A program made the translations under genes and the position numbers. A stretch of 43,950 nucleotides of DNA from a virus (lineage: Duplodnaviria > Heunggongvirae > Uroviricota > Caudoviricetes), in IMG/VR virus record IMGVR_UViG_2778261535_000013, positions 1-43,950 of that record. One strand, given 5' to 3'. A model generated the notes under the pieces. That model was not told where the DNA came from. It saw only the letters and a program-made list of their open reading frames with translations, and searched no databases. This document shows positions 4,088-22,152 of this stretch, piece by piece. Each line of letters opens with the position of its first letter. Position 1 is the stretch's first letter.

Positions 4088-4533
4088 TTACTTAAGACCT
4101 CATCAATAGCCTGATTCATTCGCTGTATGGCAATCTGTGCTGCCAGTTCCTCTGTCGTATCGAAAGCCGGGCGAATGAACGGATGCGCGGGCATGTTTAC
4201 CGTTCCCAGCTCCACAAAGCGCCAGTAAAACGCATTTCGGGGATCACTGGCTTTCATGCTGTTATCACTGTTTCCGGTTCGCAGGTTCCGTCCACGAATG
4301 TGGACACCCGAGATAATTTCCCCCCGACGCTTTGAACGCTGAGTGAGAACAACCACATTTTTCTTCAGTTTCCCGGTTCGCTCCGGCGCACGTTCAACAA
4401 CTGCATCCCGCATAACTTCAGCACCGGCACGGGTGGCATCGCGCAGTACCTTATTGTTTTCTGCCCTGCTGAGCGTCTCCAGATCCCGTGCAATATCCGC
4501 CAGACCTGAAAAATCAAGACTGAAATCCATCAC
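4084..4533 (-). CDS. HK97 gp10-family tail component
   Basis: 149 aa; sequence features (…GTVNMPAHPFIRPAFD…) and position match the HK97 gp10 family. Confidence 0.65.
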   Translation of the reverse strand: MMDFSLDFSGLADIARDLETLSRAENNKVLRDATRAGAEVMRDAVVERAPERTGKLKKNVVVLTQRSKRRGEIISGVHIRGRNLRTGNSDNSMKASDPRNAFYWRFVELGTVNMPAHPFIRPAFDTTEELAAQIAIQRMNQAIDEVLSK

Positions 4534-4868
4534 ACATTCCCCTTCTGAGAACAGAGTATCTCAAGCCGTGTGGCACGGGCATCCGGTATCGGCGGACCGT
4601 CTATACTCAGAATCGCGCCTTTGAATGCACCAGTCAGCACTTTCAGACATGAAGTTGCTGTCACATCTCGCCGGAATCTCATCCAGACCTTCACTGTAGC
4701 CTGAGCAGTTTCTGCACCTCCGGATATTCTCTCCCTGCCACTGATTCCCTTAACTTCTGCCCATATGGTTGCCCCCTCCGTCATTGTTTCCACAGGGTGC
4801 CCTGACGGAGACCGAACGGTGGTGGCATTCAGAATAACCACACGATCACGTAATCTTCCTGCCTGCAT
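4530..4868 (-). CDS. head closure / head-tail joining protein
   Basis: 112 aa, N-terminus MQAGRLRDRVVIL… typical of head-tail joining proteins; located after the gp6-like connector. Confidence 0.65.
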   Translation of the reverse strand: MQAGRLRDRVVILNATTVRSPSGHPVETMTEGATIWAEVKGISGRERISGGAETAQATVKVWMRFRRDVTATSCLKVLTGAFKGAILSIDGPPIPDARATRLEILCSQKGNV

Positions 4869-4876
4869 GAATCCTC

Positions 4877-5182
4877 CTATGTTCCGGGATGAAGCCGATA
4901 CATCCGCAGTCCGGTATAGAAAAAATCAGGCACTGCATCCTGCATTTCCCTGTTCTCGTACCAGTAGCCAACCAGTTGCATAAGACGCAGTTTTATCAGA
5001 GGTGTTATTACAAGCCCGGTCGTATCCTGCTCAGAAACAGTTTCATCGTAAAGCGTTCGGTTTAAAAACTTTTCAGCCTCTTCCCTGGCAGCATCCAGAT
5101 ACATCATAAGAAGAGAATTCTCCTGTTCATTGTCATCATCAATCCGGCACTGAACACGAAGCTCTTCCAGAGTGGGCATCAT
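4877..5182 (-). CDS. head-tail connector protein (gp6-like)
   Basis: 101 aa ORF directly downstream of capsid gene region; acidic N-terminus and size typical of gp6-like connectors. Confidence 0.65.
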   Translation of the reverse strand: MMPTLEELRVQCRIDDDNEQENSLLMMYLDAAREEAEKFLNRTLYDETVSEQDTTGLVITPLIKLRLMQLVGYWYENREMQDAVPDFFYTGLRMYRLHPGT

Positions 5183-5193
5183 TTGGGCAACCT

Positions 5194-5382
5194 CTATGAA
5201 TGCTGTTTTTTAGACTTATCAGCCCCCCGCGCAACAGGTGTTCTCTTATCAGAGACAATCCCAGCTGCAGTGGCAATTTCGCGTACCCGTTCGGGTAATT
5301 CTTTATCTTCATACTCACCGGCCCGAATGATCTCAACACTCATACCGTCCGGTGACCATTTCAGATCTTGTTTCAGGATCAT
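5194..5382 (-). CDS. hypothetical small protein
   Basis: 62 aa ORF between capsid and connector genes; no recognisable motif. Confidence 0.3.
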   Translation of the reverse strand: MILKQDLKWSPDGMSVEIIRAGEYEDKELPERVREIATAAGIVSDKRTPVARGADKSKKQHS

Positions 5383-5430
5383 GATTCTTCACCCGTCAGA
5401 ACAGGGGCGCGGTTCCGCGCCCCTGAGTGA

Positions 5431-6636
5431 TTACGCCGCTGCAATCTTCAGCAGTTTGATGGCCTGCGAATCGACCAGCATCCCGCCGGTGCGCTTGGTG
5501 GTATAAAAACCGACAAACGGTTTATTGGTGTACGGGTCACGCAGAATGCGGGTGCCGATACGGTCAACGATGGTGTAACCCCGTTTGAAGTTACCAAATG
5601 CAATGGCTTTCGCATCAGCGGCGATATCCGGCATCTGTTCGTTTTCAGCGATACCGTAACCCGCCAGAGAGGACGGCTGCCCCAGTTCCAGCCCCGGACG
5701 CCACAGATAGTTACCCTCGCTGTCTTTAAGCAGACGGATGGCAAACAGGCTGTTGTTGTTCATCATGAACTTCGCGCCAGTGCGGTGTGCCTTACGCAGC
5801 GTGTAAATCAGTTTGATAATGGCGTCTGCGGTCACCGCCGTCGCTTCGCCGGATACAATATGCTGAAGTTTGCCGAACGCCCGGACCTTATCGGTTTCAT
5901 CAGTGGATTCATACGCCAGGAACCCTTTCGGCTTCTTGGTACCATCGCCGGTGGTAAAGGCAATTTCTTCCTGTTCGGCAAATTCGGTTGCCAGCTCGCT
6001 GTTGATCCAGGCCTCCACGTTGAAAAAGGCATCATCCAGCATTTTCTGGGTGGCCTGCGGGTTACCGTAGATTTCCCCCATGAAAGGTTCAATCAGGCCC
6101 AGTTTTGAGGTGGCAGTCTGGGAGCGCGCGTCAGTCTCGCCAACCCATCCGGAAGCCGTGCCACCCAGATTCACCAGTTTTTTGTAGTCGGAACCACCAA
6201 CGGTGATCACCGTGGCTTCCTGGCGCATCACCACTTCATCTTTCAGCAGGGTGAGAATGTTGCGATCCAGTGCTTCCGGCACGGCATAGCCGCCGTCTTC
6301 ATCGGTGCCCACCTGTAATGCCTTGCGCTCCAGATCGCGCAGACCATCTTCACGGCCTTTACGCAGGAAGCCCACAAACGCTTCTTTATGCTCGGTGGCC
6401 AGTTTATTTTGCGCACCACCTGCCGGACGTTTCAGCTCAAGCAGCTCTTTTTCAAGATCGCTTTTGAGGTTTTCCAGCTCGCTGAGTTTCCCGTTCAGGG
6501 TTTCCACCTGCCCGGCAAGTTTGCCTTTTTCCTGCTCAATCGCATCCACGCGCTTGTCGTTCTTTGCTTTGAAGTCGTCAAACTTCTGCTGCAGCTCCTG
6601 CGCGACCTGTTCGACATCTTTAATATCAACCGCCAT
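5431..6636 (-). CDS. major capsid protein, HK97 family
   Basis: 401 aa; N-terminal coiled-coil delta-like region followed by HK97-fold-like sequence; preceded by protease and portal genes. Confidence 0.9.
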   Translation of the reverse strand: MAVDIKDVEQVAQELQQKFDDFKAKNDKRVDAIEQEKGKLAGQVETLNGKLSELENLKSDLEKELLELKRPAGGAQNKLATEHKEAFVGFLRKGREDGLRDLERKALQVGTDEDGGYAVPEALDRNILTLLKDEVVMRQEATVITVGGSDYKKLVNLGGTASGWVGETDARSQTATSKLGLIEPFMGEIYGNPQATQKMLDDAFFNVEAWINSELATEFAEQEEIAFTTGDGTKKPKGFLAYESTDETDKVRAFGKLQHIVSGEATAVTADAIIKLIYTLRKAHRTGAKFMMNNNSLFAIRLLKDSEGNYLWRPGLELGQPSSLAGYGIAENEQMPDIAADAKAIAFGNFKRGYTIVDRIGTRILRDPYTNKPFVGFYTTKRTGGMLVDSQAIKLLKIAAA

Positions 6637-6650
6637 CGTATTTCTCCTGA

Positions 6651-7337
6651 TTAGAAGTTCAGATTTTTCAGTGCATTCAGTGCAGAGCCCACATCCTCAG
6701 CGTCGCGCAGGGACAGTGCGCCATAGCCCCCGGCCATGAATGCTTTGGCCTGGGTACGGGAGAGTCCGACATCACGCAGGACTCTTTCGATTTTTTTCTG
6801 TTCGGGGATTTCCCCGCGGGCCAGCGCGTTCTTGACGTCGCTGATCCGCGCCTCGTCGTTAGACGGAAACGTCACCAGACTGACTTCCCAGAGGTCGATT
6901 TCTTTCAGCAGAAAGGCTTCTTTCGTCCGGTCGTATTCCCAGTCCTTCAGGACGTACCCAATAGAAAGGCCGGTTAACGAACCGGCCTTCATGTGTGCAT
7001 GTGCGCGTTTTGCCAGGGGATCATCATCAATGAGCAACCGCCCCCTGACGTAAAGCCCGACATCGTCTTCCTTCATTTCGGTGTAAACACCGATGGGCTC
7101 ATCCATGCGGTGCTGCCAGAGCAGCGCAGGCAACGCTTTTCTGTCACTCCACGCCCGCAGGGAAGCAGCAAATGCCCCGGACATCACCACATCATCGTGA
7201 CTGTCCTTTACACCAAAGACGGAGCCATATCCTTCAAACTCACCGGAGTCACTGACAGATTTCAGACTCAGCGGTACATCAAGACGTTGTTTCGTCTGCA
7301 TTGGCGTTATCCTTCTGCTTACCGGCTTTACTGCCAT
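6651..7337 (-). CDS. prohead protease, HK97 family
   Basis: 228 aa; position between portal and capsid; sequence features of the U35/S78 prohead protease family. Confidence 0.85.
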   Translation of the reverse strand: MAVKPVSRRITPMQTKQRLDVPLSLKSVSDSGEFEGYGSVFGVKDSHDDVVMSGAFAASLRAWSDRKALPALLWQHRMDEPIGVYTEMKEDDVGLYVRGRLLIDDDPLAKRAHAHMKAGSLTGLSIGYVLKDWEYDRTKEAFLLKEIDLWEVSLVTFPSNDEARISDVKNALARGEIPEQKKIERVLRDVGLSRTQAKAFMAGGYGALSLRDAEDVGSALNALKNLNF

Positions 7338-8520
7338 CGGAGGGTTTCGTGGTCATGTTCATCGGTGTGAGATAGACATCACCACCGGGACGCGGATTCA
7401 TATCTTCCAGGTCACGGCAGTCATTGGGAGAGTAAATTCCCCAGTTAATCCCGGTGGCGTAGGCTTCAAAACGGGACTTCATATCCCCGCGCAGTAACGC
7501 CCCGGCGTTAAATTTGGCGTAATAAACGCCCTGCTTACTTTTTCGTACCAGTCCGGTGTTGATCCGCTGTTCGATGCGGGTCAGATACGGCACCAGTGAA
7601 TAGTTGATAAATCCGAGCCCCAGTTCTTCGATATTGTTGAAGGTGGCGCGATCGGTGTTCTGTACCATGTGCAACGGCACCCGGAACAAACGACAGATTT
7701 CTTCAAGCTGAAACTTGCGGGTTTCCAGGAACTGGCTGTCCTCGGCGTTCAGCGCCATCGACTTCCAGTCCAGCCCCATCTCAAGGATCATCGGGCGGTG
7801 AGCATTACCAAGCCCGGTGTGACGCTCCTCAAAATCTTTCTTCAGGCGCTCATAAGCCTGATCCGACAGCGTCTGTTCAGTACGCAACACACCGGACGTC
7901 ACCGCACCATTGCTGAACAGCCTGGCCCCGTGCTCTTCGGTCGCAGCTGCCAGCGATATTGCCTCGCGGGCATAGGCGATGGGATTCAGTCCCACCAGAC
8001 CGTCCAGCGTCAGCGTGCGCACATGCCAGATATCCTCCTGGGTCAGCACATCCGTGGAGCCGTCCGGGAATGTGACCTGATAGACCGGTTCCCAGCTACT
8101 GTTAAGCTTCGGTACCACACAGCCGGGATCGACGGGCAGCAGTTCAGCCACTTCGCCAAATGCTTTCACTTTGTAGGCGTAAAAGTTTCCCCGCAGGCAC
8201 AGACAGGTGACCACCAGCTCCCAGAACTCCTGCGGCGTCATATAGCCATTGGGATGCGTGGAGATCAGCTTATGCAGACGTTCGTCGGTGGCTCTCTGTT
8301 TCAGGCTGCCGTTCAGGTGATACAGATTGCAGGGCAACATCCCGACCGACTCTGCCAACACCCTGACGCAGGAAAAAACCGCCGTCAGTCGCATGGCCCG
8401 CTGGCTGCTGATCTGCTTTCCGGTATAGGTGTCATATGACAGCCCGATAGCATCCGCCAGCTTTGCTGGCGTGGTCACCGGCGCGTCACTTTTTCGTTGA
8501 AATAATCCCGAAAAGAACAC
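7279..8520 (-). CDS. portal protein, HK97 family
   Basis: 413 aa; upstream of protease and capsid; typical portal-family sequence; 3' end overlaps the protease ORF. Confidence 0.85.
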   Translation of the reverse strand: MFFSGLFQRKSDAPVTTPAKLADAIGLSYDTYTGKQISSQRAMRLTAVFSCVRVLAESVGMLPCNLYHLNGSLKQRATDERLHKLISTHPNGYMTPQEFWELVVTCLCLRGNFYAYKVKAFGEVAELLPVDPGCVVPKLNSSWEPVYQVTFPDGSTDVLTQEDIWHVRTLTLDGLVGLNPIAYAREAISLAAATEEHGARLFSNGAVTSGVLRTEQTLSDQAYERLKKDFEERHTGLGNAHRPMILEMGLDWKSMALNAEDSQFLETRKFQLEEICRLFRVPLHMVQNTDRATFNNIEELGLGFINYSLVPYLTRIEQRINTGLVRKSKQGVYYAKFNAGALLRGDMKSRFEAYATGINWGIYSPNDCRDLEDMNPRPGGDVYLTPMNMTTKPSDGSKAGKQKDNANADETTS

Positions 8521-8702
8521 TATTTACCTCCGCCGACAGACGGCTGTGTACGGTCGAGATATCGCGCCACCAACCACGACCAGAACAGGCACAGCACCCC
8601 GGCAACAACAAAACCCGCCGGGGGATAAATCAGCCAGGCACCATACGCCAGCAAAAGCGCCCCCAGCACGCCCACCAGTGGCGCGAGAATTATCAGAAAC
8701 AT
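8520..8702 (-). CDS. small membrane protein (hypothetical)
   Basis: 60 aa hydrophobic ORF between the terL remnant and portal. Confidence 0.3.
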
Positions 8703-8713
8703 AATGACCTCGG

Positions 8714-9450
8714 TTAAAGCGAGCGGATGCCCACGCTGACCAGATGTTCAGACAGATCCGGCTCCGGTTCACCACCATTGACCAGCATCCGGCTCATTGC
8801 TGTAAACATCGCAACAGGGCCGTCGATTTTGGCTTCCGGCGTGGATTTATTCGGGAAGATGTTGTCGTTTTTGTCCGGTTTTACCGTAACGTTAGACATC
8901 ATCCAGTTCATGACCGGATGATTGCTGTGATGGAAACGCCCGGCATAGACCAGTGATTCCGTTTCCTTCATGGCCTCTGACAGATTGCGAACCGTCTGCG
9001 GAACCTCCACCAGCGGTATCCCTTCTTCAGCCAGTGCCAGGCTGAACTGCATCGCGCTCCACGGGTCAAATCCCAGTTCCCTGAGGTTTTCACCACCAAT
9101 CCATTCCAGTAAGTCACTTTTTATCTGAGCATGATCGATAACATCACCATCCGTCAGAATCAGCTTATCCATCTCCGCCCACTTCCGGTAAAGTTCTGCC
9201 TGCTGCCGCGAGCATCGTTCCAGCCGTCCTTCCGGAAGCCAGAATTTAAAATCGGCATGAACATGCCCGTTATCCGTTCGCCAGAGTTTTGCCGCCGCAC
9301 AGATATCAATCTTATGAGCAAGGTCAACGCCGACCCACATGGGATACGTTTTCAGCTCATGTCGTGGGGCAATGTATTCGCACTTCTCCCACTTAATCAT
9401 GTCCATCCAGGCAGACTCTGCTGTTACCCACACATTCATGTGTTTGGTAA
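8714..9450 (-). pseudogene. terL: terminase large subunit, C-terminal (nuclease-domain) fragment of an interrupted gene
   Basis: 241 aa ORF begins …TKHMNVWVTAESAWMDM…; the frame is open upstream only to the insertion junction at 9450; it continues the N-terminal fragment at 24089-25116 when the insert is removed. Confidence 0.8.
9444..9450. repeat. att core copy (TTGGTAA) at left junction of the inserted element
   Basis: identical 7-mer at 24089-24095; joining left flank plus core plus right flank restores the terL reading frame. Confidence 0.6.
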
Positions 9451-9525
9451 GAATATTTCAAGTTTTTTAAAATCACCTGTATATCAATCGTTTAACATGA
9501 AAAAACAGTCTTTATAAATCATCAA

Positions 9526-9546
9526 GCAATACACAGCGCAATACAC
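9526..9546. repeat. GCAATACACAGCGCAATACAC, candidate integrase arm-type site (left arm)
   Basis: near-identical 21-mer (one mismatch) at 23938-23958 just inside the opposite end of the element. Confidence 0.4.
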
Positions 9547-9731
9547 GTATCTGTATTGTTTTAATGCTGATACACACCGTTTTTTGATACAGTGATTCGA
9601 CCTACCATCGCGAAGAATTTTTTATTTCTTGTGTGTAACAATCTGACGAGGTGAGCACTCAAAGAGATAAGAGGCAGTAGAAATTTCGATCCCCCCTGAA
9701 TGCAATTTTTCGTATATATATACAAAACAGC

Positions 9732-9885
9732 GCGGGTTATGCGGGTTAGCGGGTTATCTTCGCGTGCTAAGCATTTTTTACTCTTTAATATCAATAAGTT
9801 AAAAAAACAACGTATTTAAATATCAGCCAGAATATAACCCGCAAGACATTCAAAATAACCCGCAAACACCCCTCAAATAACCCGC
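9732..9885. repeat. iteron cluster A: three tandem GCGGGTTA(T/G) copies, an AT-rich spacer, and three inverted ATAACCCGC copies
   Basis: direct reading of the sequence; the same 9-mer recurs at 17572-17694. Confidence 0.55.
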
Positions 9886-9966
9886 AAAAACATCCCTGAA
9901 AGTGGGCGCTGGTAATACTGAAAATTTATTCCATTAAATGAGCATTGTCCTCTCTCATCCATTCCG

Positions 9967-11628
9967 TTACACACCATCAAACGCCGCAAGCCGCTCTTTG
10001 TGGCTGTCGCTCATATCGAATGCAAATTCCTCATGCTCTGCCTGGAATGTGCCAAACGCCATCAGCGCCGCAACGCTCGGGTCTATCTTGTTGGATGATT
10101 TTTTCTTGTTCGGCTTGATATTGGCGTTCGCGTCACTCTGCATCACAACATTACTCATTGACCAGGCCAACACCGGATCACCACGATGCACAATCACCTT
10201 CCGGTTAACAAAAACTTCGAACGATTTCGCCGCCGGACTGAAACGAAGATATGTTTGCGGGAACGGCTCCACCTCAAATCCTGCTCCCTGTAGCTGCGTC
10301 CTCAGGTGCGTGGCGTTCCATGTATCGAAGCCCACCAGCCTGATATTGAAATTCTCTGCATCCGCCATGATGTCATCACGGATACGGTCATAATCAATGC
10401 AGTCACCCGGTGTTGTGCGTATCCAGCCCGCCTTTACCCACTGGCGATAGATGGCGCGGTTTTTATTGGCGGGATTCTGTAGCTGAAATTCCGGCAGATA
10501 GTGACGGGAAACCAGCATAATCTTTTTACCGACCGGGAAGGCATAGCACACGCTGGAAATATCGCTGGTTGATGATAAGTCCAGCCCCGCGTAGCACTCC
10601 TGCCCGTATAAATCCGCCTCCGCGAACGTTCCGGCACACTCCGCCCATGCACCGTTACCCATCCACGGCGTAGCCCCCTGACACCAGATATTGAATCGCT
10701 TGGTGAGCATTTCCACCCACTGCGACGGAATACCCCGCGCTTTCTGGATGGTTGAGGCCAGTTTTTCACGATCGACGGAAACATCGATATTGGGATTCGC
10801 CTTTATCCACATCGCCGGATCGTCAACCTCGCTTTCATCATCCAGCTCGTAAATCAGCACGAACATGGATTCGTTCACCTCTTCACCATCCAGTATCTGG
10901 CAGCAATAGTCGTAGTGTTGTTTACAGGCTGAAACAACGTTGCTCCCCGATGTGGTGATGGCAAATAATACCCCCTCTGGACGCGCCCCCATTCCCAGTT
11001 CAAGCGCGGAATAAACCCCGTTGTCAGGGTGCAGGTGATATTCATCCACAATGGCAAGACTCGGGTTTTTCCCCTCAATGGTTGCCGCTTTTGCTGCCAG
11101 TGGCGTTAACAGGCTGTTGGTTTTCGGGTGTATCACCTTGTGCGCCTGAATATTTACCCGCTTTCGTAACGGTCGGGATAAAAGGCACATCTGACGCGCA
11201 TCATCAAACACGATCCGCGCCTGATCACGACTCACGGCGGCGGTGTAAATATCCTGCTGCCCGTTTTCCATAACCAGAAACCAGTTAGCTAGGATAGCGG
11301 CGACCGTGGATTTGGCATTTTTTCGCGGTACTTCAATGAATGCGCTGGTGTATTTGCGCCGTCCGGTGGCCTTAACCTTAAAGCCCAGGATGCAGGAAAA
11401 GGCGAACTGCTGCCACGGCTCCAGTTCAATGGGGCTACCGCGCATTGCGCCTTTTACGTGCGGACACACCCTGGAAAAGGCAATAAACCGCTCCACGACC
11501 TCCTGATCGAACGTGTAAAGGGGGTTTTCGAGGTCAGAAAAATATCGTTTAACGGCCTGTTTCAGTCGTTTACAGGCCGTAATTTTGCCGTTTTTTACGC
11601 CTTCTGCGTACTCATGCCAGGCGGTCAA
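9967..11628 (-). CDS. terminase large subunit (element-encoded)
   Basis: 553 aa with ATPase-like N-terminal and nuclease-like C-terminal regions; translationally coupled to the upstream TerS. Confidence 0.9.
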   Translation of the reverse strand: MTAWHEYAEGVKNGKITACKRLKQAVKRYFSDLENPLYTFDQEVVERFIAFSRVCPHVKGAMRGSPIELEPWQQFAFSCILGFKVKATGRRKYTSAFIEVPRKNAKSTVAAILANWFLVMENGQQDIYTAAVSRDQARIVFDDARQMCLLSRPLRKRVNIQAHKVIHPKTNSLLTPLAAKAATIEGKNPSLAIVDEYHLHPDNGVYSALELGMGARPEGVLFAITTSGSNVVSACKQHYDYCCQILDGEEVNESMFVLIYELDDESEVDDPAMWIKANPNIDVSVDREKLASTIQKARGIPSQWVEMLTKRFNIWCQGATPWMGNGAWAECAGTFAEADLYGQECYAGLDLSSTSDISSVCYAFPVGKKIMLVSRHYLPEFQLQNPANKNRAIYRQWVKAGWIRTTPGDCIDYDRIRDDIMADAENFNIRLVGFDTWNATHLRTQLQGAGFEVEPFPQTYLRFSPAAKSFEVFVNRKVIVHRGDPVLAWSMSNVVMQSDANANIKPNKKKSSNKIDPSVAALMAFGTFQAEHEEFAFDMSDSHKERLAAFDGV

Positions 11629-11968
11629 GCTCGTCCTCCTCCTCTGTTTCCGGTGGATTTCTGCGGCGGCTTACCGGGTCAAAACCCAGCAAAGAAGCCA
11701 TTTTGATCATTATTCTTTCCGCGTCAGCCTTTGCGCTCAGGGCGGGGTTTCTGCTCTCGCTGCCCTGACTGTTAACAATGCTGAAGCCGCGCGTCGCAAG
11801 GTCTTCGACGGCTTTGCGGTATATGGAGTAGTTAACGCAATACAGTTCCAGATTGCTCCAGTCGGCGGGGGTAAGGTCTTCCCGCCCGGAAAGCTGGCGC
11901 GATTTTTCCTTCCACTGCCTGACCGCGATTTCATCCAGGTAAGCGGGGGCTTTTGGTGGTCTTGCCAT
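11612..11968 (-). CDS. terminase small subunit, P27 family
   Basis: likely start MARPPKAPAYLDE… at 11968; the ORF track extends further upstream to 12109; directly upstream of TerL. Confidence 0.7.
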   Translation of the reverse strand: MARPPKAPAYLDEIAVRQWKEKSRQLSGREDLTPADWSNLELYCVNYSIYRKAVEDLATRGFSIVNSQGSESRNPALSAKADAERIMIKMASLLGFDPVSRRRNPPETEEEDELDRLA

Positions 11969-12256
11969 GTTCTTTTTTCGCCCAATTATTTTCAAAAAAA
12001 TTCCCGTGCACAAAAATTTGAGGAGGCGGTCGGTGTCCGGCAGGGACGGTTTTGTCCTGAAAACCTCCCCCACCCCCTCTGACGGCCTCACCAGCGATTG
12101 CGAAAACATTCCATGACCTCGCGGTCACGGTCGGTTAATTGCTTCGCTGTGGTGCGTTCTGTGCGCCCTGTCCTGTTGGCTTTGTGCCCTGTCTCCTGTG
12201 TCTTCCATAAGTCACGCTGCCTTATCAGTCCACGTATCAGCCTGTTTTGCTCCTGT

Positions 12257-12697
12257 TCAGTCATCATCGCCATACATCCAGTCGTTACGGTGTGCCGCCC
12301 GTTCTTCCTGCTCGCGATACATGCCCGCCTTACGGTTCGCTTTCGTGGCTGGATCTTCCCGTGTCGTCTTACGGTTGTGGCACGTCTGGCACAATGCCTG
12401 GTGATTCCACTCAGGCCAGAAGAGAACATCACCGCCGCCATTGATGGGAATGATGTGATCCACCACAAGAGCTGGCGTATAAATCCCCTTAGCCAGACAA
12501 CGCACGCATAACGGGTTTTTGCTCAGGTACAGGGCGCGGTATTTGTCCCACTGTCGGGAATACCCGCGCGCGCGGCGGTGTCCCCGTCTGGCATCCTCTG
12601 CACGCCATGCAGCCCGCCTGTGCTCTTCACACTTTCCGGACTTCACGCGCTTATTACAGCCCGGCTCAGTGCAGCGCCTTAATGGTTGCCACGGCAT
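12257..12697 (-). CDS. HNH endonuclease (packaging-associated)
   Basis: 146 aa with Cys-rich N-terminus and VVDHIIP…H…C HNH motif; positioned next to TerS. Confidence 0.8.
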   Translation of the reverse strand: MPWQPLRRCTEPGCNKRVKSGKCEEHRRAAWRAEDARRGHRRARGYSRQWDKYRALYLSKNPLCVRCLAKGIYTPALVVDHIIPINGGGDVLFWPEWNHQALCQTCHNRKTTREDPATKANRKAGMYREQEERAAHRNDWMYGDDD

Positions 12698-12996
12698 CAG
12701 TACACCCCCACATCACGATAAACCGACCAGAGCGCAGAAATAGCCATAGGCAGTTCAGACTGCTCCACAGGTGAAACCGCTTCCCTGTTCTCGTACAGGA
12801 AAGCGATGTACATCAGGCAACCAACACGTATTGCCGGGGTAAATTCCAGCCCGTCTTCAAAACGTTTCCCGATATGCTTCTGGCAGGCTTCCAGCGCCGC
12901 ATCGGTATACATTTTCAGAAGTTCGCCTTCTCCGGAAAAGTCATCAAGGCGAAGATGTGCCCTGACTTCATCAGGTGTAATTTTGTCTTCACTCAT
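12697..12996 (-). CDS. head-tail connector (gp6-like)
   Basis: likely start MSEDKITPDEVRAHLRLDDF… at 12996; similar in pattern to the resident gp6-like protein. Confidence 0.6.
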   Translation of the reverse strand: MSEDKITPDEVRAHLRLDDFSGEGELLKMYTDAALEACQKHIGKRFEDGLEFTPAIRVGCLMYIAFLYENREAVSPVEQSELPMAISALWSVYRDVGVY

Positions 12997-14203
12997 CTTT
13001 TTCACCTTTAATTTCCACAGTCTGCTTCCATGCCTGGCTGAACTCGTCGCCACCTTCACGCGGCGGCATTCCCTCACGCTCACGGGCTTCGTTCGGATTC
13101 ATGATCCCGTTCTTAATCCCTTTCTCATACGTGGCGTAACGTTCAGTAGGTGTGGCGCGCAGTAAATCGGCTGAATCAAACTCAACCAGATAACGGGTAC
13201 CAGGTACGGGAGAAGCCACCAGCAAAGCGGCCTTGATTTGCTGTTCGAAGTTCGCCAGCCACGGACGCATTGTCATAGTCAGAAACGCGCGGCTTGCCTC
13301 ACTGAAATTGCTGTAGGTGCTGTTGCTGTATTCCTGCAGAAAAATCGGCGACACGTTGAACATCCGGGCGATGTCTTCAATGGAGAAGCGACGGGAGGCC
13401 AGCCATTCCGCATCCTGGTTACTCATCCCCAGTTGCTTGTAATCCATGCCCCCTTCAAGGATTGGCGTTTTTCCGGCATTTTTCGCCCCCTTGTAGCGTT
13501 CCAGTGCGTCTAATGCCTGTTTACCTTTCACGCCGTCCAGCCATTCGCCTGACGTGATAATCCCTGCCGCCATCATGCCATCTTTCATAATGCTGGCTCC
13601 GTGACGCTGTTGAGCAAGGCCAAGCCCCAGCGCCTCACGGCAAATCGTGATGGGGGAGCGTCCCAGAAAGCCATCATCCGAGGCATAGCGGAGATGCAGA
13701 ACTTCTTCCTGTAAATACGTGCGCACCGTTCCTGTACAGGGTTCGGTGATGGTATAGCGGTATTTGTGTGCGCCTGTGCGTTCCGGTACAACACACCCCG
13801 GCGCATAAGGATGAAGTGATTTTGGCTGACCGTCCCGCCCCCATTCAATAACCGCATAGGCGTTACCGTTCAGCAGGCAGTGACGCATCATTGTGCGTTT
13901 AAACTGGTAAGGTGTCTGGCACGAATTAGGCTGCTCATTCAGCAGAATATCTACCGGATGACTGTCCAGCCATTCCCGCGCCTCCCTGCCCTTGTCATTA
14001 CGTACCAGATACAGATAACACGGCATCGTGGCCACCGCCTCAGCGATGACGGAAACCGCGTTCATCACTGCGGGCAATGATTCAGCCGTCCCGGCAGAAA
14101 CATATTCTCCGGATCCGGTATTCGGTACGCCGGACAGCACCAGAAAATCATCAATGGACAGGTTACGTTGCTCGCTTTTTTTACGACTAAAAGGCCACCA
14201 CAT
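12989..14203 (-). CDS. portal protein, HK97 family
   Basis: likely start MWWPFSRKK… at 14203, one nucleotide after the protease stop; the ORF track extends upstream to 14422 across the protease gene. Confidence 0.8.
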   Translation of the reverse strand: MWWPFSRKKSEQRNLSIDDFLVLSGVPNTGSGEYVSAGTAESLPAVMNAVSVIAEAVATMPCYLYLVRNDKGREAREWLDSHPVDILLNEQPNSCQTPYQFKRTMMRHCLLNGNAYAVIEWGRDGQPKSLHPYAPGCVVPERTGAHKYRYTITEPCTGTVRTYLQEEVLHLRYASDDGFLGRSPITICREALGLGLAQQRHGASIMKDGMMAAGIITSGEWLDGVKGKQALDALERYKGAKNAGKTPILEGGMDYKQLGMSNQDAEWLASRRFSIEDIARMFNVSPIFLQEYSNSTYSNFSEASRAFLTMTMRPWLANFEQQIKAALLVASPVPGTRYLVEFDSADLLRATPTERYATYEKGIKNGIMNPNEAREREGMPPREGGDEFSQAWKQTVEIKGEKDE

Positions 14204-14204
14204 A

Positions 14205-14765
14205 TCACAACCCCGCCAGCTCTGCCCAGCGATGACGATTATTTCCTGCCGGGCGTAATTCAGGGTGCTGTGCAAACAACGAACGGTGGGCAATCTCCAC
14301 GCCAGATTCGGGATAAGCAGGCATCGACGTGATCGTGATTTCCCTGAGTTCTGCAGCGGTAACAGTACGCAGATACGGTTTTTGCGCGATATTCCACTCT
14401 TCGCATAATGCGCGAAAGCCAAAGCTCATCCCTGTAATGTCGCCACGCTCCACCAGCGTAAGCACATCTTTTCCAAGCTGGGTATCAGGCGGTGTCAGTT
14501 CAAAACGTAGCCCGGTGTTGTCCTCAGTCAGTACCAGAGTGCCGGATTTGGTGCGCCCCAGCAGTTGGGTATAGTCATGCTCATACAGGCAGCGCACATC
14601 ATTACCCGCCGCCAGATAGTCAGCAAAAGCCCCCGGCGTGAACTGTTCGCGGAATTCGTCCCAGATAATTTCTGAAAGGCTGTTCCAGCGAACGGCATAC
14701 CCCACCAGCTTTTTATTGCTGGCGGTCAGTTCAGATGTGCGGATTTCAAAATCGGTGTTTTTCAT
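14205..14765 (-). CDS. prohead protease, HK97 family
   Basis: 186 aa; sequence pattern of HK97 prohead proteases; lies between capsid and portal genes. Confidence 0.85.
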   Translation of the reverse strand: MKNTDFEIRTSELTASNKKLVGYAVRWNSLSEIIWDEFREQFTPGAFADYLAAGNDVRCLYEHDYTQLLGRTKSGTLVLTEDNTGLRFELTPPDTQLGKDVLTLVERGDITGMSFGFRALCEEWNIAQKPYLRTVTAAELREITITSMPAYPESGVEIAHRSLFAQHPELRPAGNNRHRWAELAGL

Positions 14766-14819
14766 CGGTGTACTCCATAAAGCTGAAAAAGGAGGCCGCA
14801 GCCTCCTCCTTACTCATGA

Positions 14820-15989
14820 CTAGCCAGCTTTCATTTCCAGAATTTTGATGGCGTTTGAATCCACCACACCACCGCCCAGATATTTATCCGTGTGGACCTT
14901 GTAGAATCCGGGTTCAGTAATGTTGTCCGGTCGGGTGCGAATCCCTGTTACATGATCAACGATGAAATAACCACGACTGAAATCGCCAACCGCTAGCGGT
15001 GCTTTTCCTGCGCCGATGTCCGGCATGGACTCCAGGCAGAAAACAGGACGACCAAGCAACATATCCGGCGCACCTTCTTTAAGGCTGTCGCGCCAGATAT
15101 AATCGCCATTCTCATTTTTCAGCTTCTGTAGTGTCCCTGCCGTGCCCGAGTTCATCACCCAGACGGCATTTTTGCGGTATTTCGCTTTCAGCTTGTAGAG
15201 AATGTCGATCAGTTCGTCCGCTGTAATGGCGGTTCCACTTGCCGCTACCACTTTTTCAATGGTGCCAAAAGCGCGGGTTTTGTCACTGGTCGCCGCACGG
15301 GTGTAAGCCATGAAGCCTTTCGGCTTGCCGTTACCGTCGCCATTAACAAAATCATCCTCTTCGGTGCTGGCGAACGTGTCGGCAATTTCGGAGGATAACC
15401 AGCCCAAAATATCCACCTCTGAAAAATCCAGGATTTCCTGCGTGGTTTTCGGGTAGGCGTAGATCTGATTCAGCTTGATGGTTACACGTTCAATTTTCGG
15501 GGTGTTGGTTTCACTACGTGCGCTGCCTTCTGTGCCTCGTCCTACAGTTGCGCCGCCAGTGGAAACCAGTTTCTGAAACTCATTTGATTTTGCGGTCTTC
15601 ACGGTCGCGATCACGCGCATAACACTGTCATCCTGTAGCTGGCGCATGACTTCGCGATCAAGCTCAGGAATTACGGTATATCCGCCATCCCTGCCGCTGT
15701 CAGTGCTGGTGGACAGTGATCGCACATCTCCGGTTACGATGTAGTTACGCAATTCATCAGATGATAATTTCTGGATGCCCGTTCCTGGCTTGCTGCGTTC
15801 TTCATCAGCCACAGACTCGAGGCGGTAAATTTCTGTGTCGAGGGAATCGGCTTTTGCACGCAGTTCATCAAACTGTTTGCCCTCGTCATCGTTCAGGCTG
15901 CGGTTTTCACTGTCGGCTTTTTCCAGCAGGGATCGCATCTGGTTTTTCAGGGCGGTTTTTTGCTGGCGGAGTTCGATTAATTTCTTCAT
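14820..15989 (-). CDS. major capsid protein, HK97 family
   Basis: 389 aa; N-terminal coiled-coil region then capsid-fold sequence closely paralleling the resident capsid protein (…GDGNGKPKGF…). Confidence 0.9.
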   Translation of the reverse strand: MKKLIELRQQKTALKNQMRSLLEKADSENRSLNDDEGKQFDELRAKADSLDTEIYRLESVADEERSKPGTGIQKLSSDELRNYIVTGDVRSLSTSTDSGRDGGYTVIPELDREVMRQLQDDSVMRVIATVKTAKSNEFQKLVSTGGATVGRGTEGSARSETNTPKIERVTIKLNQIYAYPKTTQEILDFSEVDILGWLSSEIADTFASTEEDDFVNGDGNGKPKGFMAYTRAATSDKTRAFGTIEKVVAASGTAITADELIDILYKLKAKYRKNAVWVMNSGTAGTLQKLKNENGDYIWRDSLKEGAPDMLLGRPVFCLESMPDIGAGKAPLAVGDFSRGYFIVDHVTGIRTRPDNITEPGFYKVHTDKYLGGGVVDSNAIKILEMKAG

Positions 15990-16226
15990 GAAGGTTTTCT
16001 CGTATTGGTTAAGATTCAGGACGTGAAACCAACACGGAGGGAGCGCCGCCCGACACTCTCGGCATCTCGCAGATCAACCCGGCATCGCGCAGGGGGTCAG
16101 GCGGCATTGTGGCGGCTCACGTCTGAGTGCCACACGCCAACATATACATAAAAATCAGTATGTAAACATCAGCCAGAATCACCGAACAACCTGGAACAAC
16201 CACGAACAAATAATTTACAAAACCTG

Positions 16227-16255
16227 AAAAAAAGACCTGGAGAAAATCCAGGCCT
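16227..16255 (-). terminator. intrinsic terminator after the replication/accessory operon
   Basis: minus-strand stem CCTGGA/TCCAGG with loop, followed by TTTTTTT. Confidence 0.5.
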
Positions 16256-16263
16256 TTATCGCT

Positions 16264-16512
16264 TTATTGTTTCACTGGATCCCGCATTCTGCGTCTTATT
16301 TTCCACAGATATTCGATCATCGCTTCCACCTGCTCACGATTGGTTGCGAAAATTTCCCCGGTCAGTGAGCTGCGCAGAAAATCATGATGATCCACAACAA
16401 ACAACGCATCGGAAGAAAGCAGACGGCGATATTTTTTTGCTGTCGTGGTTTCCAGATCATCAAAACCATGAAACTTTTTATGTTGCTGGACTTCTTCAAA
16501 TGTCACTGGCAT
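16264..16512 (-). CDS. hypothetical protein
   Basis: 82 aa ORF overlapping the ProQ/FinO-like gene stop; no motif. Confidence 0.35.
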   Translation of the reverse strand: MPVTFEEVQQHKKFHGFDDLETTTAKKYRRLLSSDALFVVDHHDFLRSSLTGEIFATNREQVEAMIEYLWKIRRRMRDPVKQ

Positions 16513-17045
16513 GTATCCCCCTTTGCTGCCCGGCGCTGGCGCTTGTGCTTCTCATTCAGCGCCATCAGCCGCGTTTCTGCCTCCTGCTGTTCCTGTGGTG
16601 TCACTTCCCCACATGGCTGGCCTTTCAGGTCGTATCGTACCCCACCAGCAACCAGGGCGCGGTAATAGCGCGGAGACTGCGCATAAGATGCCAGCGTCGC
16701 ACGTAATGCCCCCGGCCCGAATGCCAGCCCCCTGACGGCGAGATCCTGCATCAGGTCGTCGAATATCCCCACCTTAAGCGGCTTCGGTGCTTCCCTGTTG
16801 AATAAGTCAGGCCACATCTCAGTGAGGCGGTTAACGCGCCTGCGGTTTTTGCGCTGGCGTTTGGTCATATGCCGCCACGGTGTCACCCCTGTGGGCTGCC
16901 CTTTGCGGCTCTGCTGTGCGTTCTGATTGCCGGGTATCACTTTATGCGCCGATGTGGTTTTATCCCGCTCTTGCGCCGCCTGCGTCGTTTTCTGCGGCGT
17001 GCCGTAAATGCCTTTCGGTTTTCGGTTAATGGTCAGCTTTGTCAT
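16503..17045 (-). CDS. ProQ/FinO-domain RNA-binding protein
   Basis: C-terminal region …WPDLFNREAPKPLKVGIFDDLMQDL…YAQSPRYYRAL…RYDLKGQPCGEVTPQE… aligns by eye with the ProQ N-terminal FinO domain; basic N-terminus. Confidence 0.7.
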   Translation of the reverse strand: MTKLTINRKPKGIYGTPQKTTQAAQERDKTTSAHKVIPGNQNAQQSRKGQPTGVTPWRHMTKRQRKNRRRVNRLTEMWPDLFNREAPKPLKVGIFDDLMQDLAVRGLAFGPGALRATLASYAQSPRYYRALVAGGVRYDLKGQPCGEVTPQEQQEAETRLMALNEKHKRQRRAAKGDTCQ

Positions 17046-17081
17046 GCCTTCCCCTGTAATTACTCTGTTCGCTGTTGTGAA

Positions 17082-17507
17082 TTAAAACTGTATGTTATCC
17101 CCGTACAGGTCATCGTGCTGGCCTGTCTGTTGTTTTGCCCTGTTCAGTGCGTCAGTGGCCTGCCCCTGTTGGCCTTTTTTGCCGCCCGGTCGCGCCGTTC
17201 TCGCACTGATTACGCTGTCTGCGATGACCTGCCAGCCCTGCCGCGTTTCGCCGTTCTGCCCTGTCCACTGGCTTACCTGCATGTTACCCGCCACGTTCAC
17301 CAGTTCGCCTTTGCGGTGTTTTGCCAGTGCGTCGGCCTGTCTGCCAAACGCCAGGACGGATAACCACATCGTCGCCGTTCCGTCATCTGCCTGGCTGCAT
17401 GGCAGGGGAACCGCCATACTCGCCATCGCCATTTGTGTTCCCTTGCTGGTGGTCTTTAACTGCGGGTCAGCCACCAGCCGCCCGTAAGCCGCTATCTGTG
17501 CTGTCAT
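17082..17507 (-). CDS. ssb: single-stranded DNA-binding protein
   Basis: 141 aa; N-terminal OB-fold-like sequence, Gly/Gln-rich linker and acidic C-terminal tail DDLYGDNIQF. Confidence 0.7.
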   Translation of the reverse strand: MTAQIAAYGRLVADPQLKTTSKGTQMAMASMAVPLPCSQADDGTATMWLSVLAFGRQADALAKHRKGELVNVAGNMQVSQWTGQNGETRQGWQVIADSVISARTARPGGKKGQQGQATDALNRAKQQTGQHDDLYGDNIQF

Positions 17508-17571
17508 GCTGTCTGCTCTCCGGTTTTAACGTTGATGGTTACGCTTGTTTACACCCTTACGGTGAAATTCT

Positions 17572-17694
17572 GCGGGTTATAATCGCACTTTTGCGGGTTA
17601 TAACTGCCGTTTTGCGGGTTACGTGCGGGTTATTGATTTCCTTTTTATTCATACAGTTAATGCACTTATATACATGATAACCCGCATAACCCGC
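17572..17694. repeat. iteron cluster B: four GCGGGTTA(T/C) copies, an AT-rich spacer, and two inverted ATAACCCGC copies; candidate origin
   Basis: direct reading; lies immediately downstream of the replication gene. Confidence 0.6.
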
Positions 17695-17717
17695 AACTTT
17701 TCACCTCACACAGGGGG

Positions 17718-19841: not shown

Positions 19842-20152
19842 TTTGCCTTTCCCCGTTCACGAATAATTTCACGTACTGCCTTAATGCGTTCCATTCCTGT
19901 AACGCGCATGATTCTGTCGATGTCGCTTAATTCTGCTGGTGGTGCTTTACTTACCAAGGTGAACTCCCTGTCAAAGCGCATATGTGACGACACGCAGGGA
20001 TGCGCATAACCTTCGCGGATATAGGTCACACGAAAATCATCGACGGTTTTGATCGTTATCGTGCTGCCGTATTTATCCTGGAAAATATCGCCGGGGCGGA
20101 TTTCAGGCCGAGCGGGGCCGCTGGCAGTAAAGCCAGAATTTTTCTTTTTCAT
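19838..20152 (-). CDS. hypothetical protein
   Basis: 104 aa ORF, stop overlaps the replication gene start. Confidence 0.4.
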   Translation of the reverse strand: MKKKNSGFTASGPARPEIRPGDIFQDKYGSTITIKTVDDFRVTYIREGYAHPCVSSHMRFDREFTLVSKAPPAELSDIDRIMRVTGMERIKAVREIIRERGKAK

Positions 20153-20157
20153 GTTTT

Positions 20158-20406
20158 TTACTCCAGAGGCAGCTTTTTAGCGGCGAGCTCAATATCAGAT
20201 GTCAGAGAAACCTGTGTATTTGCCAGGTCTAACAACAAAGAAATAAGAATTTCTTCTCTGCTATCGGATTTATCGGTGCTAAGGCTGTTCATCCACATAT
20301 TGACGACTTCCCTGATTTTTTTCGCAGAGTGCAGGGCTTCAAATGCCAGGTCTTCAATATCATGTTTATTTCGCATAATCGCCCCCGCCATTTTCACAAT
20401 CAGCAA
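20158..20406 (-). CDS. hypothetical protein
   Basis: 82 aa ORF; true start uncertain. Confidence 0.35.
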   Translation of the reverse strand: MLIVKMAGAIMRNKHDIEDLAFEALHSAKKIREVVNMWMNSLSTDKSDSREEILISLLLDLANTQVSLTSDIELAAKKLPLE

Positions 20407-20611
20407 TCAGGATGGCTTTTGCCTCATTCAGCGCCGTATCAGCACTAAATTGCATGACAGCCAGTGAGTGAGGAACGAAAGCCCCGGCATATTCTGTTTC
20501 GCTGGTGGCGTGCTTATGCGCCTTGTCTGCGATAACAGAAATATCAATCAGCGCGTGCATCAGCGTTCTGATGGCTTCGGCGGCTGCGTCCGGACGGGTG
20601 TTATTACACAT
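20366..20611 (-). CDS. hypothetical protein
   Basis: 81 aa ORF; its ATG overlaps the stop of the upstream 67-aa ORF (ATGTGTAA) with AGGAGG RBS. Confidence 0.4.
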   Translation of the reverse strand: MCNNTRPDAAAEAIRTLMHALIDISVIADKAHKHATSETEYAGAFVPHSLAVMQFSADTALNEAKAILIADCENGGGDYAK

Positions 20612-20807
20612 GGCGTACCTCCTGACGAATACGGGCAGTAAATACCATCACGCAGCCGGCCGGGGATTGCTGGCGGGCTTCCTGTTCGCTGGTGGCCTCA
20701 ATGGTAATCACGCGCGGCTTAGCCGTGCTCAGGGCGATAAAACGCCAGATGTATTTATTCAGGTTGTGCGAGTCCCGCCCTTTCGGGTGTGTGGTATGAT
20801 TTAACAT
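20604..20807 (-). CDS. hypothetical small protein (67 aa), first gene of the leftward operon
   Basis: ATG at 20807 with RBS; corresponds to the C-terminal 67 codons of a long low-complexity ORF-track entry that is otherwise implausible. Confidence 0.4.
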   Translation of the reverse strand: MLNHTTHPKGRDSHNLNKYIWRFIALSTAKPRVITIEATSEQEARQQSPAGCVMVFTARIRQEVRHV

Positions 20808-20904
20808 AGCTACCTCGATACTTTCGCTATCGTTGGTGGTTAGAAGCCCCGTTACTGCTCCAACAGTGCGGGGTTTCGTCGTTTCTGCACCTTGCATAAA
20901 CAAG

Positions 20905-20985
20905 GTGTAAGACACAATGTAAAGCAGCAGTGTCTTACACGTCAATCCTTCAAAATAATTTTTTTTCGTGTATATTGTCTTACAC
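20905..20985. promoter_or_regulatory. divergent promoter region with three copies of operator GTGTAAGACAC / GTGTCTTACAC
   Basis: inverted pair at 20905-20915 and 20930-20940, third copy at 20976-20985 overlapping a TATATT -10-like hexamer about 30 nt upstream of the RHH gene. Confidence 0.5.
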
Positions 20986-21006
20986 CAAAAACATAAGGAG
21001 TTAGAC

Positions 21007-21186
21007 ATGGCAACAGGTCCAAAGAATGCAAAATCACAATCTGTAACTGCACGTATTGCCCATGAAATTATTGAAGGCATGGAAAAAGTGAAAGAAGAAG
21101 GCGAAAGTACAGGGCAGTTTATAAGCGCAGCCATGCGTGGCGAGATCAAACGCCGCCAGCGCCGCAAGGCCAAAGAGCAGGAGTAA
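21007..21186 (+). CDS. small ribbon-helix-helix-like regulator
   Basis: 59 aa from ATG 21007 (MATGPKNAKSQSVTARIAHEIIEGMEK…) with GGAG RBS; sequence pattern compatible with RHH/CopG-type DNA-binding proteins. Confidence 0.45.
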   Translation: MATGPKNAKSQSVTARIAHEIIEGMEKVKEEGESTGQFISAAMRGEIKRRQRRKAKEQE

Positions 21187-21243
21187 CCATCACCAGCGCC
21201 GTGGTGAGAGTAACTACGGCGCATTGCTATGCAGGTGCTTACC

Positions 21244-22095: not shown

Positions 22096-22152
22096 CGCTT
22101 TCTACCTCACATACAAAAAACCCCGCATTGCGTGGTGCGGGGTTGTCGGTAA

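Follow-up and report, generated by a model that had tools for sequence, protein, structure and literature searches.

Two clusters of one short iteron, separated by 7,686 bp within a phage satellite, probably form, as two halves, one Rep-dependent origin of replication belonging to a capsid-forming satellite of the PICI type, a reading to which comparative sequence analysis leads us to assign a probability of about two in three. Both clusters lie in the window, by which we mean the whole 43,950-bp stretch of DNA that was analysed. Judged by homology to the origins of related elements, cluster B, beside the replication gene rep, is half 1 of the origin, and cluster A, near the opposite end of the satellite, is its structurally distinct second half.

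Two clusters of opposed iterons in a capsid-forming satellite

Exact copies of GCGGGTTAT occur ten times in the 43,950 bp, counting both strands, and all of them fall inside the two clusters (Table 1), whereas dinucleotide-preserving shuffles contain 0.29 on average and never more than 3. Two one-mismatch copies, also within clusters A and B, join these ten, and the longer consensus of the iteron is T(T)GCGGGTTAT. The plus-strand copies of cluster A start at positions 9732, 9741 (GCGGGTTAG, one mismatch) and 9749, and its minus-strand copies are at 9834, 9855 and 9877; the plus-strand copies of cluster B are at 17572, 17593, 17614 (GCGGGTTAC, one mismatch) and 17625. Each cluster is composed of iterons, an AT-rich spacer and inverted iterons, with at least two iterons in opposed directions to both sides of the AT-rich stretch, which is the arrangement of PICI origins (PMC6092414, PMC9371898). 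Counted in the orientation of rep from its stop codon (17718), cluster B begins after 24 bp, immediately 3' of the gene, with iterons at +24, +33, +85, +96, +117 and +138, and the iterons of cluster A follow at +7833, +7855, +7876, +7961, +7969 and +7978, then GCTGTTTTGTATATATATACGAAAAA. Cluster A occupies a non-coding stretch 82 bp past the stop codon of the satellite's own terL gene (9967) and ~275 bp inside the left end of the element. A PICI feature that the element lacks is an origin in one contiguous block next to rep. Each half taken alone has the minimal layout of a PICI origin. The original prediction, that the same 9-bp iteron forms two origin-like clusters about 8 kb apart, with cluster B in the expected origin position directly downstream of the replication gene and cluster A in a mirrored layout beside terL and the left att junction, was correct in its counts, coordinates and layouts.

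The element (~9451–24095) is a capsid-forming PICI-type satellite that is inserted in the terL gene of a prophage. Comparison with an intact phage terL gene (vB_EcoM-606R7, locus L088) shows that 14,645 bp, measured from one att core to the other, have been inserted, and this intact terL matches window positions 6900–9457 and 24089–26098 with a 14-bp overlap, TTGGTAAAAAAATT. The two cores share the sequence TTGGTAA(A/G)AA(A/T)ATT, and a pair of direct repeats, 95% identical and 14,412 bp apart, occupies the two att arms. Gene calls were taken from the RefSeq annotation of a 100% identical copy in E. coli EC416 (covering 9400–18000), together with Pfam and PHROGs. All genes of the satellite region are on the minus strand, in the order integrase, two AlpA-family genes with a BRO-N gene, a DUF4222 gene, Rep, and a module running from ssb to terL. 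The stretch between the clusters contains genes for ssb, ProQ/FinO, an HK97-type capsid, protease, portal, connector, HNH, terS and terL, the last of which matches the terminase large subunit PHROG 9 with E = 7.5e-179, and no tail genes were found in the satellite in the EC416 annotation, Pfam or PHROGs. This content, with int, alpA, pri-rep and a capsid and packaging set but no tail genes in 14,645 bp, is the gene set of capsid-forming PICIs (10.1101/2022.09.08.507074).

The replication protein matches Pfam DUF927 (E = 5.8e-46) and, among the PHROGs, primase/helicase as well as PHROG 1139, DNA primase (E = 2.6e-173). A profile of 19 Rep homologues searched against the PDB matched 8tch, a 'Pathogenicity island protein' (E = 1.6e-16, residues 211–606), and also the helicase 5dgk (5e-5); Rep is an initiator-helicase homologous to the Rep proteins of PICIs and SaPIs.

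Table 1 Features of the satellite and its two iteron clusters in window coordinates.
Feature	Position	Strand	Basis or remark
attL core TTGGTAAGAATATT	9444–9457	.	Satellite left end within prophage terL; comparison with L088
Candidate integrase arm-type repeat GCAATACACAGCGCAATACAC, left arm	9526–9546	.	Direct repeat; motif unlike the iteron
TA-rich near-palindrome TTTTTCGTATATATATACAAAAC	9706–9728	.	Outer edge of half 2; comparison of E. coli distal half 2 sequences
Cluster A tight array, three iterons spaced 9 and 8 bp	9732–9757	+	GCGGGTTAT, GCGGGTTAG, (G)CGGGTTAT
Cluster A AT-rich spacer, 76 bp, 27.6% GC	9758–9833	.	Holds conserved CTTCGCGTGCTAAG and an IHF-consensus match, TATCAATAAGTTA
Cluster A phased array, three inverted iterons, 21 and 22 bp apart (~two helical turns)	9834–9885	-	
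Stretch between the origin halves, 7,686 bp	9886–17571	-	EC416 annotation, Pfam, PHROGs
Satellite's own terL, last gene before cluster A	9967–11628	-	PHROG 9; EC416 annotation
Cluster B phased array, four iterons spaced 21, 21 and 11 bp	17572–17633	+	
Cluster B AT-rich spacer, 43 bp, 25.6% GC	17634–17676	.	
Cluster B tight array, two abutting inverted iterons (17677, 17686)	17677–17694	-	+24 and +33 from the rep stop
Rep, 707-aa DUF927 primase-helicase, presumed iteron-binding initiator	17718–19841	-	Pfam, PHROG, profile search
Tyrosine integrase with arm-binding domain	22694–23917	-	Pfam Phage_integrase and Arm-DNA-bind_3; start codon read from the sequence
Candidate integrase arm-type repeat, right arm	23938–23958	.	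Direct repeat partner of 9526–9546
attR core TTGGTAAAAAAATT	24089–24102	.	Satellite right end; comparison with L088

Homology of both clusters to the contiguous origin of relatives

To place the two clusters among related origins, 80 loci encoding Rep homologues were gathered, with one genome per species. Iterons follow directly after rep in most of the loci that have enough downstream sequence, and their sequence varies by lineage (GTTGGTTC, ACGGGTTA, GTGGGTTA, GTTGTCTC, GTCGGTT, AGTGTGTC and others). In 43 enterobacterial loci from other species the origin is one block of ~300 bp that consists of two unlike halves with a fixed grammar. Half 1, read in the orientation of rep, has two abutting iterons (at ~+25 and ~+34), an AT-rich spacer of ~45 bp and three to four inverted iterons, mostly ~21 bp apart and reaching ~+141. 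After a middle region of ~40–55 bp, often with CTGGCTGG, half 2 has two to three phased iterons, an AT-rich spacer of ~75 bp and three abutting inverted iterons. The half 2 spacer ends in TTAGCAGGCGAAG in the origins of NGGGTTA type, and in many of the origins read out from other genera the tight array is succeeded by (A/C)CGTTTTGTTTATATATACGAAAA, a near-palindrome rich in TA.

The iteron positions in the window reproduce both halves of the contiguous origins at six of these loci (L003, L006, L007, L012, L059 and L063). In relatives the contiguous origins close with three tight inverted iterons; the tight array of cluster A is the counterpart of these, and its phased array matches the phased array of their half 2. 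The non-iteron flanks also match, with TTAGCAGGCGAAG before the tight array and TTTTGT(A/T)TATATATACGAAAA after it. Because iteron positions and non-iteron flanks agree, cluster B is assigned to half 1 and cluster A to half 2.

The assignment was examined further by fusing window positions 9690–9905 artificially to 17556–17725 and searching complete E. coli genomes with this joined sequence by BLAST. The join aligns directly after a DUF927 rep gene in 141 E. coli genomes, including O157:H7, with 77–83% identity over at least 80% of its length; among the matches listed, all are colinear and consist of a single BLAST piece of 364–375 bp, except for one in two pieces. In a MAFFT alignment, too, the sequences that flank a non-homologous centre of ~55 bp are homologous and colinear. 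In the capsid-forming PICI of O157:H7 (L084), positions 12001–12154 match window positions 9713–9867 and positions 12209–14085 match 17570–19446 by blastn. There, ssb and the packaging module come after the whole origin; in the window, ssb comes directly after half 1, and half 2 comes after terL. EDL933 (H101), the host of the prototype capsid-forming PICI, is covered by the half 2 match to the extent that is usual for unsplit origins. These alignments are better described by a single origin in two halves than by two origins. The earlier suggestion that cluster A could be a second origin was right about the origin-type array, but this array appears to be the second half of one origin that is contiguous in most relatives.

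The sequence of the iteron covaries with the C-terminus of Rep. Six loci with NGGGTTA iterons rank top for the identity of the 95 C-terminal residues of Rep to those of the window Rep (59–76%), whereas over the 155 residues before these they are unexceptional (55–74% identity). The L002 Rep, which has the highest core identity (85%), is only 33% identical in its C-terminus and has a different iteron. In SaPI Reps a C-terminal winged helix binds the iterons, and these proteins are thought to load themselves where iterons flank an AT-rich region (PMC9371898); the origins of Gram-negative PICIs share this iteron and AT-rich layout, and that of EcCICFT073 was shown to be functional (PMC6092414). 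The C-terminal domain of Rep is thus the likely reader of the iterons here, for which covariation of C-terminus and iteron type is the expected pattern. An AlphaFold2 model of Rep from 19 sequences was of too low quality (mean pLDDT 49) to confirm a winged helix at the C-terminus, where it indicates helix-helix-strand-strand with low confidence only. Loss of the motif from homologous elements had been named as an outcome that would count against the original prediction; the iteron was found to be conserved and to covary with Rep, so that this comparison does not refute it.

Recurrence of the split and constraint on the distal half

The contiguous form of the origin is the commoner one, and the split is present in a sizeable minority of relatives, namely in roughly 110 of the 252 E. 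coli genomes with the GCGGGTTAT iteron type and in at least 8 other species. A distal-type half 2 covering at least 80% of the query was found in 161 E. coli genomes and half 1 in 252, and those split pairs for which both coordinates were listed lie 7.8–10.9 kb apart. The E. coli split elements occupy different att sites and carry different cargo: besides the window satellite, a capsid-forming PICI in a prophage terL gene, they include another capsid-forming PICI at yifB (L087), an element at yejO with PerC and DUF1441 cargo (L090), and elements with three large unknown genes at dinD (L086) and at a site adjoining type III secretion genes (L091).

At eight loci from other species only half 1 is beside rep, and a canonical half 2 lies further downstream, at +0.57 kb in L069, +2.3 kb in L002, +4.8 kb in L027, +5.9 kb in L035, +6.2 kb in L025, +7.2 kb in L020, +8.8 kb in L034 and +9.0 kb in L054, which brings the overall range of split distances to 0.6–10.9 kb. 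Each of these distal halves has three phased iterons, an AT-rich spacer, three abutting inverted iterons and a TA-rich tract, and the iterons used (GTTGGTTC, GTCGGTT or CTTGTCCC) are always matched between the two halves. Lineages differ in the central sequences at which the break lies, and the split has therefore probably occurred several times independently. Tandem fusion followed by deletion and formation of a cointegrate were considered as routes to the split, and neither yields the observed order in a single step. To see whether half 2 is always terminal in the element, att repeats were sought in other genera; the only candidates were a 14-bp repeat in L034, 778 bp past half 2, and a 19-bp repeat in L035, 1.8 kb past it.

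The distal half 2 sequences were compared among seven E. coli copies. Only 2 of 53 iteron columns are variable, against 43 of 101 intervening columns (Fisher p = 7e-8, for sequences that are phylogenetically related and include orphans that are possibly recent derivatives), and on this sequence comparison the iterons of the distal halves are under constraint. The TA-rich near-palindrome is almost invariant in the same seven sequences, with an extra TA in two copies. Across E. coli genomes, half 1 gave matches in 252, half 2 in 356 and the joined query in 357, from which it follows that nearly every genome with half 1 also has a half 2-type match, an arithmetic that is approximate because about 100 of the 356 half 2 matches cover only the 38-bp flank with the TA palindrome. 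This flank matches ~100 further E. coli genomes. The split elements have also lost the rep-proximal half 2.

Distal halves are also found beside Reps that do not match them. In L085 and L089 an orphan distal half 2 with GCGGGTTAT iterons is present, while the Rep has a complete origin of its own, with GGTAGACA iterons in L085 and GGGAC(A/G)AC iterons in L089. These orphans indicate that a distal half 2 can persist without its cognate Rep, and the distal half may just be carried along with the element's att-proximal end. L089 and L090 have a common att site and distal cargo and differ in their rep-origin module, which probably makes the L089 orphan a side effect of module swapping. At nine further loci from other species, half 1 is present and no clear half 2 was detected in the ~10 kb of downstream sequence at each; half 1 alone may suffice in these cases, or half 2 may lie further away.

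The E. coli distal copies all preserve the IHF consensus within the spacer of half 2; its presence in only 4 of 43 unsplit origins, compared with 0.5 in shuffles, makes the IHF site a weak lead. A promoter scan of cluster A returned one weak sigma-70-like match, located at the att core, a terminator search of the cluster found none, and an Rfam search returned no credible match (only snoZ118, E = 0.91, which we take to be chance). These scans leave a promoter role for the TA palindrome unsupported.

Possible function of the proposed divided origin and comparison with known systems

If the two clusters are halves of one origin, the C-terminal domain of Rep would bind the iterons of both, and each half would present opposed iteron arrays around an easily melted AT-rich spacer of its own, which is the arrangement proposed for self-loading of PICI Rep helicases. 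Both halves might fire, in which case initiation would take place at two points lying nearly across from one another on the 14.6-kb circle, since the halves are 7.7 and 6.7 kb apart on the excised form. Alternatively, contacts between Rep molecules could loop the DNA and bring the halves together, rebuilding the double origin in a manner resembling the action of the P4 alpha protein. A bolder proposal, which we consider doubtful, is that separable half-origins turn the gap into a recurrent cargo slot, with Rep pairing the halves across up to 11 kb or loading one helicase on each, as an independent PICI counterpart of the P4 ori/crr system. Were it true, whole capsid and packaging modules or large sets of unknown genes would ride inside the origin, and retention of the cargo would be coupled to the ability to replicate, since a recombination event deleting the cargo would at the same time reassemble or break the origin.

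It is also conceivable, though unlikely, that cluster A is a non-functional relic or passenger, the distal end of another satellite with the same iteron that was acquired by recombination or by fusion of tandem elements, and that replication proceeds from cluster B alone. Half 1 by itself satisfies the minimal definition of a SaPI-type origin (PMC9371898), and a passenger would account readily for the orphan halves beside non-cognate Reps in L085 and L089, for the module swapping seen between L089 and L090, and for the nine loci with half 1 only within 10 kb. Against a relic stand the conservation of the iteron columns relative to the spacers (p = 7e-8), the recurrence of a split with cognate iterons in at least five lineages and four iteron sequences, and the near absence of E. 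coli genomes with half 1 and no half 2-type match. The loss of the rep-proximal half 2 from split elements also argues against it, being what is expected if the distal copy replaces the proximal one. Another role for conserved distal iterons would be negative control of copy number. In some plasmids, P1 with its incA locus among them, additional iteron arrays titrate the initiator or pair with the origin array ('handcuffing'), and cluster A, which has the same iterons as the rep-proximal cluster, is kilobases away from it and is conserved, could act as such a sink or handcuff cluster B. This appears improbable, as cluster A has the opposed arrays, AT-rich spacer and TA palindrome of an origin, not plain direct repeats, and is homologous to a part that lies inside the contiguous origin of relatives; burst replication after induction, moreover, would give little obvious need for copy limits.

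Cluster A is separated from the attL core by ~275 bp and from the stop codon of terL by 82 bp. A region that controls packaging or excision had also been suggested here, and a recombination or packaging site of this kind, whether arm sites of attP for Int or the excisionase or a cos- or pac-related sequence, is highly improbable. Arm sites for the integrase were rejected, given that no exact GCGGGTTAT occurs near attR and the iteron is absent from that att arm, and both arms hold another repeat instead, GCAATACACAG[C/T]GCAATACAC, at 9526–9546 and 23938–23958; an excision control region is likewise unsupported. A cos or packaging site was rejected likewise, since in unsplit relatives the homologous sequence adjoins rep, ~8 kb from att and terL, and distal half 2 sequences are present in satellites without terminase genes (L086 and L091), which also leaves the packaging part of the original prediction unsupported. 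The identical motif, in addition, forms the canonical rep-proximal origin.

The comparisons show that the origin of the DUF927-Rep satellites of Enterobacterales is a double module and that, in a substantial fraction of elements, all of the accessory region lies between the two modules. Should both halves be required, the origin would work in spite of, or take advantage of, a spacing of 0.6–11 kb, as in P4, and annotation pipelines that look only beside rep would miss half of it. In that case the engineering of capsid-forming PICIs as delivery vehicles must retain the distal half, and orphan half-origins would be markers of past satellite recombination.

Published accounts place the PICI origin in a single unbroken block directly 3' of rep (PMC6092414, PMC9371898), a layout used as a hallmark of the family (PMC6092414). 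The element described here resembles the PICI/SaPI replicon in its Rep core, which is related to 8tch, in the iterons that begin 24 bp after rep, in the opposed iterons that flank an AT-rich region and in the covariation of iteron sequence with the Rep C-terminus. It differs in that the block is divided, here and in a sizeable minority of relatives, by 0.6–10.9 kb of cargo, and in that the enterobacterial DUF927-type origin comprises two iteron-AT-iteron modules in inverted order, not one. A counterpart in gene content is the prototype capsid-forming PICI EcCIEDL933 (10.1101/2022.09.08.507074), which shares int, alpA, pri-rep, ssb, the set of genes from capsid to terL, the absence of tail genes and a size of ~14.6 kb; the terL-HNH region is 87% identical to that of the O157:H7 element. 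The O157:H7 element (L084) has an unsplit origin, whereas half 2 is at the distal end here, and the window lineage lacks the small gene between origin and ssb and integrates into prophage terL. We found no description of a divided PICI origin in the PICI literature examined, and the paper on capsid-forming PICIs (10.1101/2022.09.08.507074) does not discuss the origin.

Among plasmids, R6K and P1 resemble the window element in having initiator-binding repeats at two loci of one replicon, as clusters A and B are candidates to be. In these distant-iteron plasmids (R6K gamma with the alpha and beta origins, P1 incA), initiator repeats are present at two loci, for which looping or pairing has been proposed, and the distant sites consist of individual or incomplete iterons or of arrays made up purely of direct repeats. 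Their initiators are unrelated to Rep, and the distant site in the window is, unlike theirs, a complete origin-like module.

A close parallel is the ori/crr system of satellite phage P4, in which the same short iteron is likewise found in two clusters kilobases apart, one of them directly downstream of the primase-helicase gene. Both are satellite elements with a P4-type integrase, and both have a tight pair of iterons, a spacer and inverted iterons. Looping that brings together ori and the distant crr has been attributed to P4 alpha; crr lies far from ori and is one that is required in cis; Flensburg and Calendar in 1987 and Ziegelin et al. in 1993–95 reportedly established the requirement for crr in cis and the binding of alpha to both ori and crr. 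The annotation of P4 (NC_001609) places ten type-1 repeats in crr (4291–4590) directly after alpha (4636–6969) and six in ori (9310–9413), 4.7 kb away. The P4 iterons are of the TGTTCACC type, unrelated to the GCGGGTTAT of the window, and the distant cluster of P4 is upstream of the alpha operon, whereas that of the window is downstream, beyond the cargo. The DUF927-Rep family, unlike P4, also has a contiguous form, which is the commoner. In a BLASTP comparison of Rep with P4 alpha the best match had E = 0.068 over 51 residues, which falls short of homology to alpha, and the profile search of PDB sequences with Rep returned no alpha chain; in the light of this lack of sequence similarity, the parallel is one of analogy, not of homology or family membership. 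By this analogy, we infer that the split origin works like P4 ori/crr, a long-known functional precedent; what appears to be new is the division of an origin of PICI type.

Orphan half-origins and probable exchange of replication modules

Orphan copies of half 2, the distal half-origin, are found at the distal satellite end in two E. coli satellites, L085 and L089, whose Rep proteins use other iterons (GGTAGACA; GGGAC(A/G)AC) with a complete origin of their own. L089 and a further E. coli satellite, L090, have their att site and cargo in common and differ in the rep-origin module, a combination suggesting that satellites have exchanged modules.

With its TA-rich near-palindrome, the 38-bp half 2 flank is nearly invariant across distal halves, and ~100 further E. 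coli genomes match it at 97% identity without the GCGGGTTAT iterons. This flank looks like a part of half 2 that is common to different iteron types, and it is possibly the melting site. A search of the flank for a sigma-70-like promoter match returned none.

In two PICI-like satellites, L086 and L091, the cargo located between the two origin halves consists of three large genes (918, 686 and 843 aa) and a 104-aa gene; neither Pfam nor PADLOC gives a match for any of them. The cargo is thus a candidate uncharacterised accessory or defence module.

Features of the satellites and their coordinates
Feature	Location	Remarks
Orphan half 2, intact, six GCGGGTTAT iterons	L085 10043-10195	E. coli BH100
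Orphan half 2, intact, six GCGGGTTAT iterons	L089 10043-10195	Strain IGC_RcoliRes_1.1
Half 2 flank, 38 bp, with TA-rich near-palindrome TTTTTCGTATATATATACAAAAC	Window 9691-9728	
Cargo between two origin halves	L086 10905-18566	PICI-like satellite
Cargo between two origin halves	L091 10899-18560	PICI-like satellite
Iteron-like 9-mer ACGGGTTAT, one of the nine with one mismatch	Window 23925-23933	Ends 8 bp upstream of int start codon
GCAATACACAG[C/T]GCAATACAC repeat	Window 9526-9546 and 23938-23958	One copy near each satellite end

Iteron-like sequences and candidate integrase sites

Nine iteron-like 9-mers with one mismatch lie inside the element (9451-24095) and outside both iteron clusters, compared with ~2.8 expected, a value that we scaled to the element from a whole-window shuffle mean of 8.4. 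Several of the nine are GCGGGTTTT, a common terminator-like sequence, and the surplus may be due to chance.

The satellite integrase has an Arm-DNA-bind_3 domain. The repeat present near each satellite end, together with more ATACAC-like copies beside the left-end repeat (window 9548-9580), likely represents the arm-type sites of this enzyme.

Integration into the prophage terL gene

The satellite is integrated into terL of the HK97-like resident prophage (window 8714-9457 and 24089-25116, with the junctions at 9444-9457 and 24089-24102), and its insertion leaves the gene in two pieces, one 5' and one 3'; the 3' piece is the endonuclease part and has an ATG of its own at 9439. To the right of the satellite, five minus-strand tRNA genes (Val, Gly, Thr, Lys and Met) form a cluster (28408-29445) that may be part of the same prophage. 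The satellite copy in EC416 is identical to the window copy except for an inserted IS1414 of about 1.3 kb (L001 21982-23190), which is absent at about 20600-21600 in the window, indicating that the window derives from a different strain or a pre-insertion state.

This terL-satellite junction is shared by 34 complete E. coli genomes, among them 042, UMNF18 and strains of the ETEC and APEC types, whereas the intact terL target is present in 905 genomes. Precise excision of the satellite would restore terL, and the disruption of a prophage packaging gene by a satellite is of interest in its own right.
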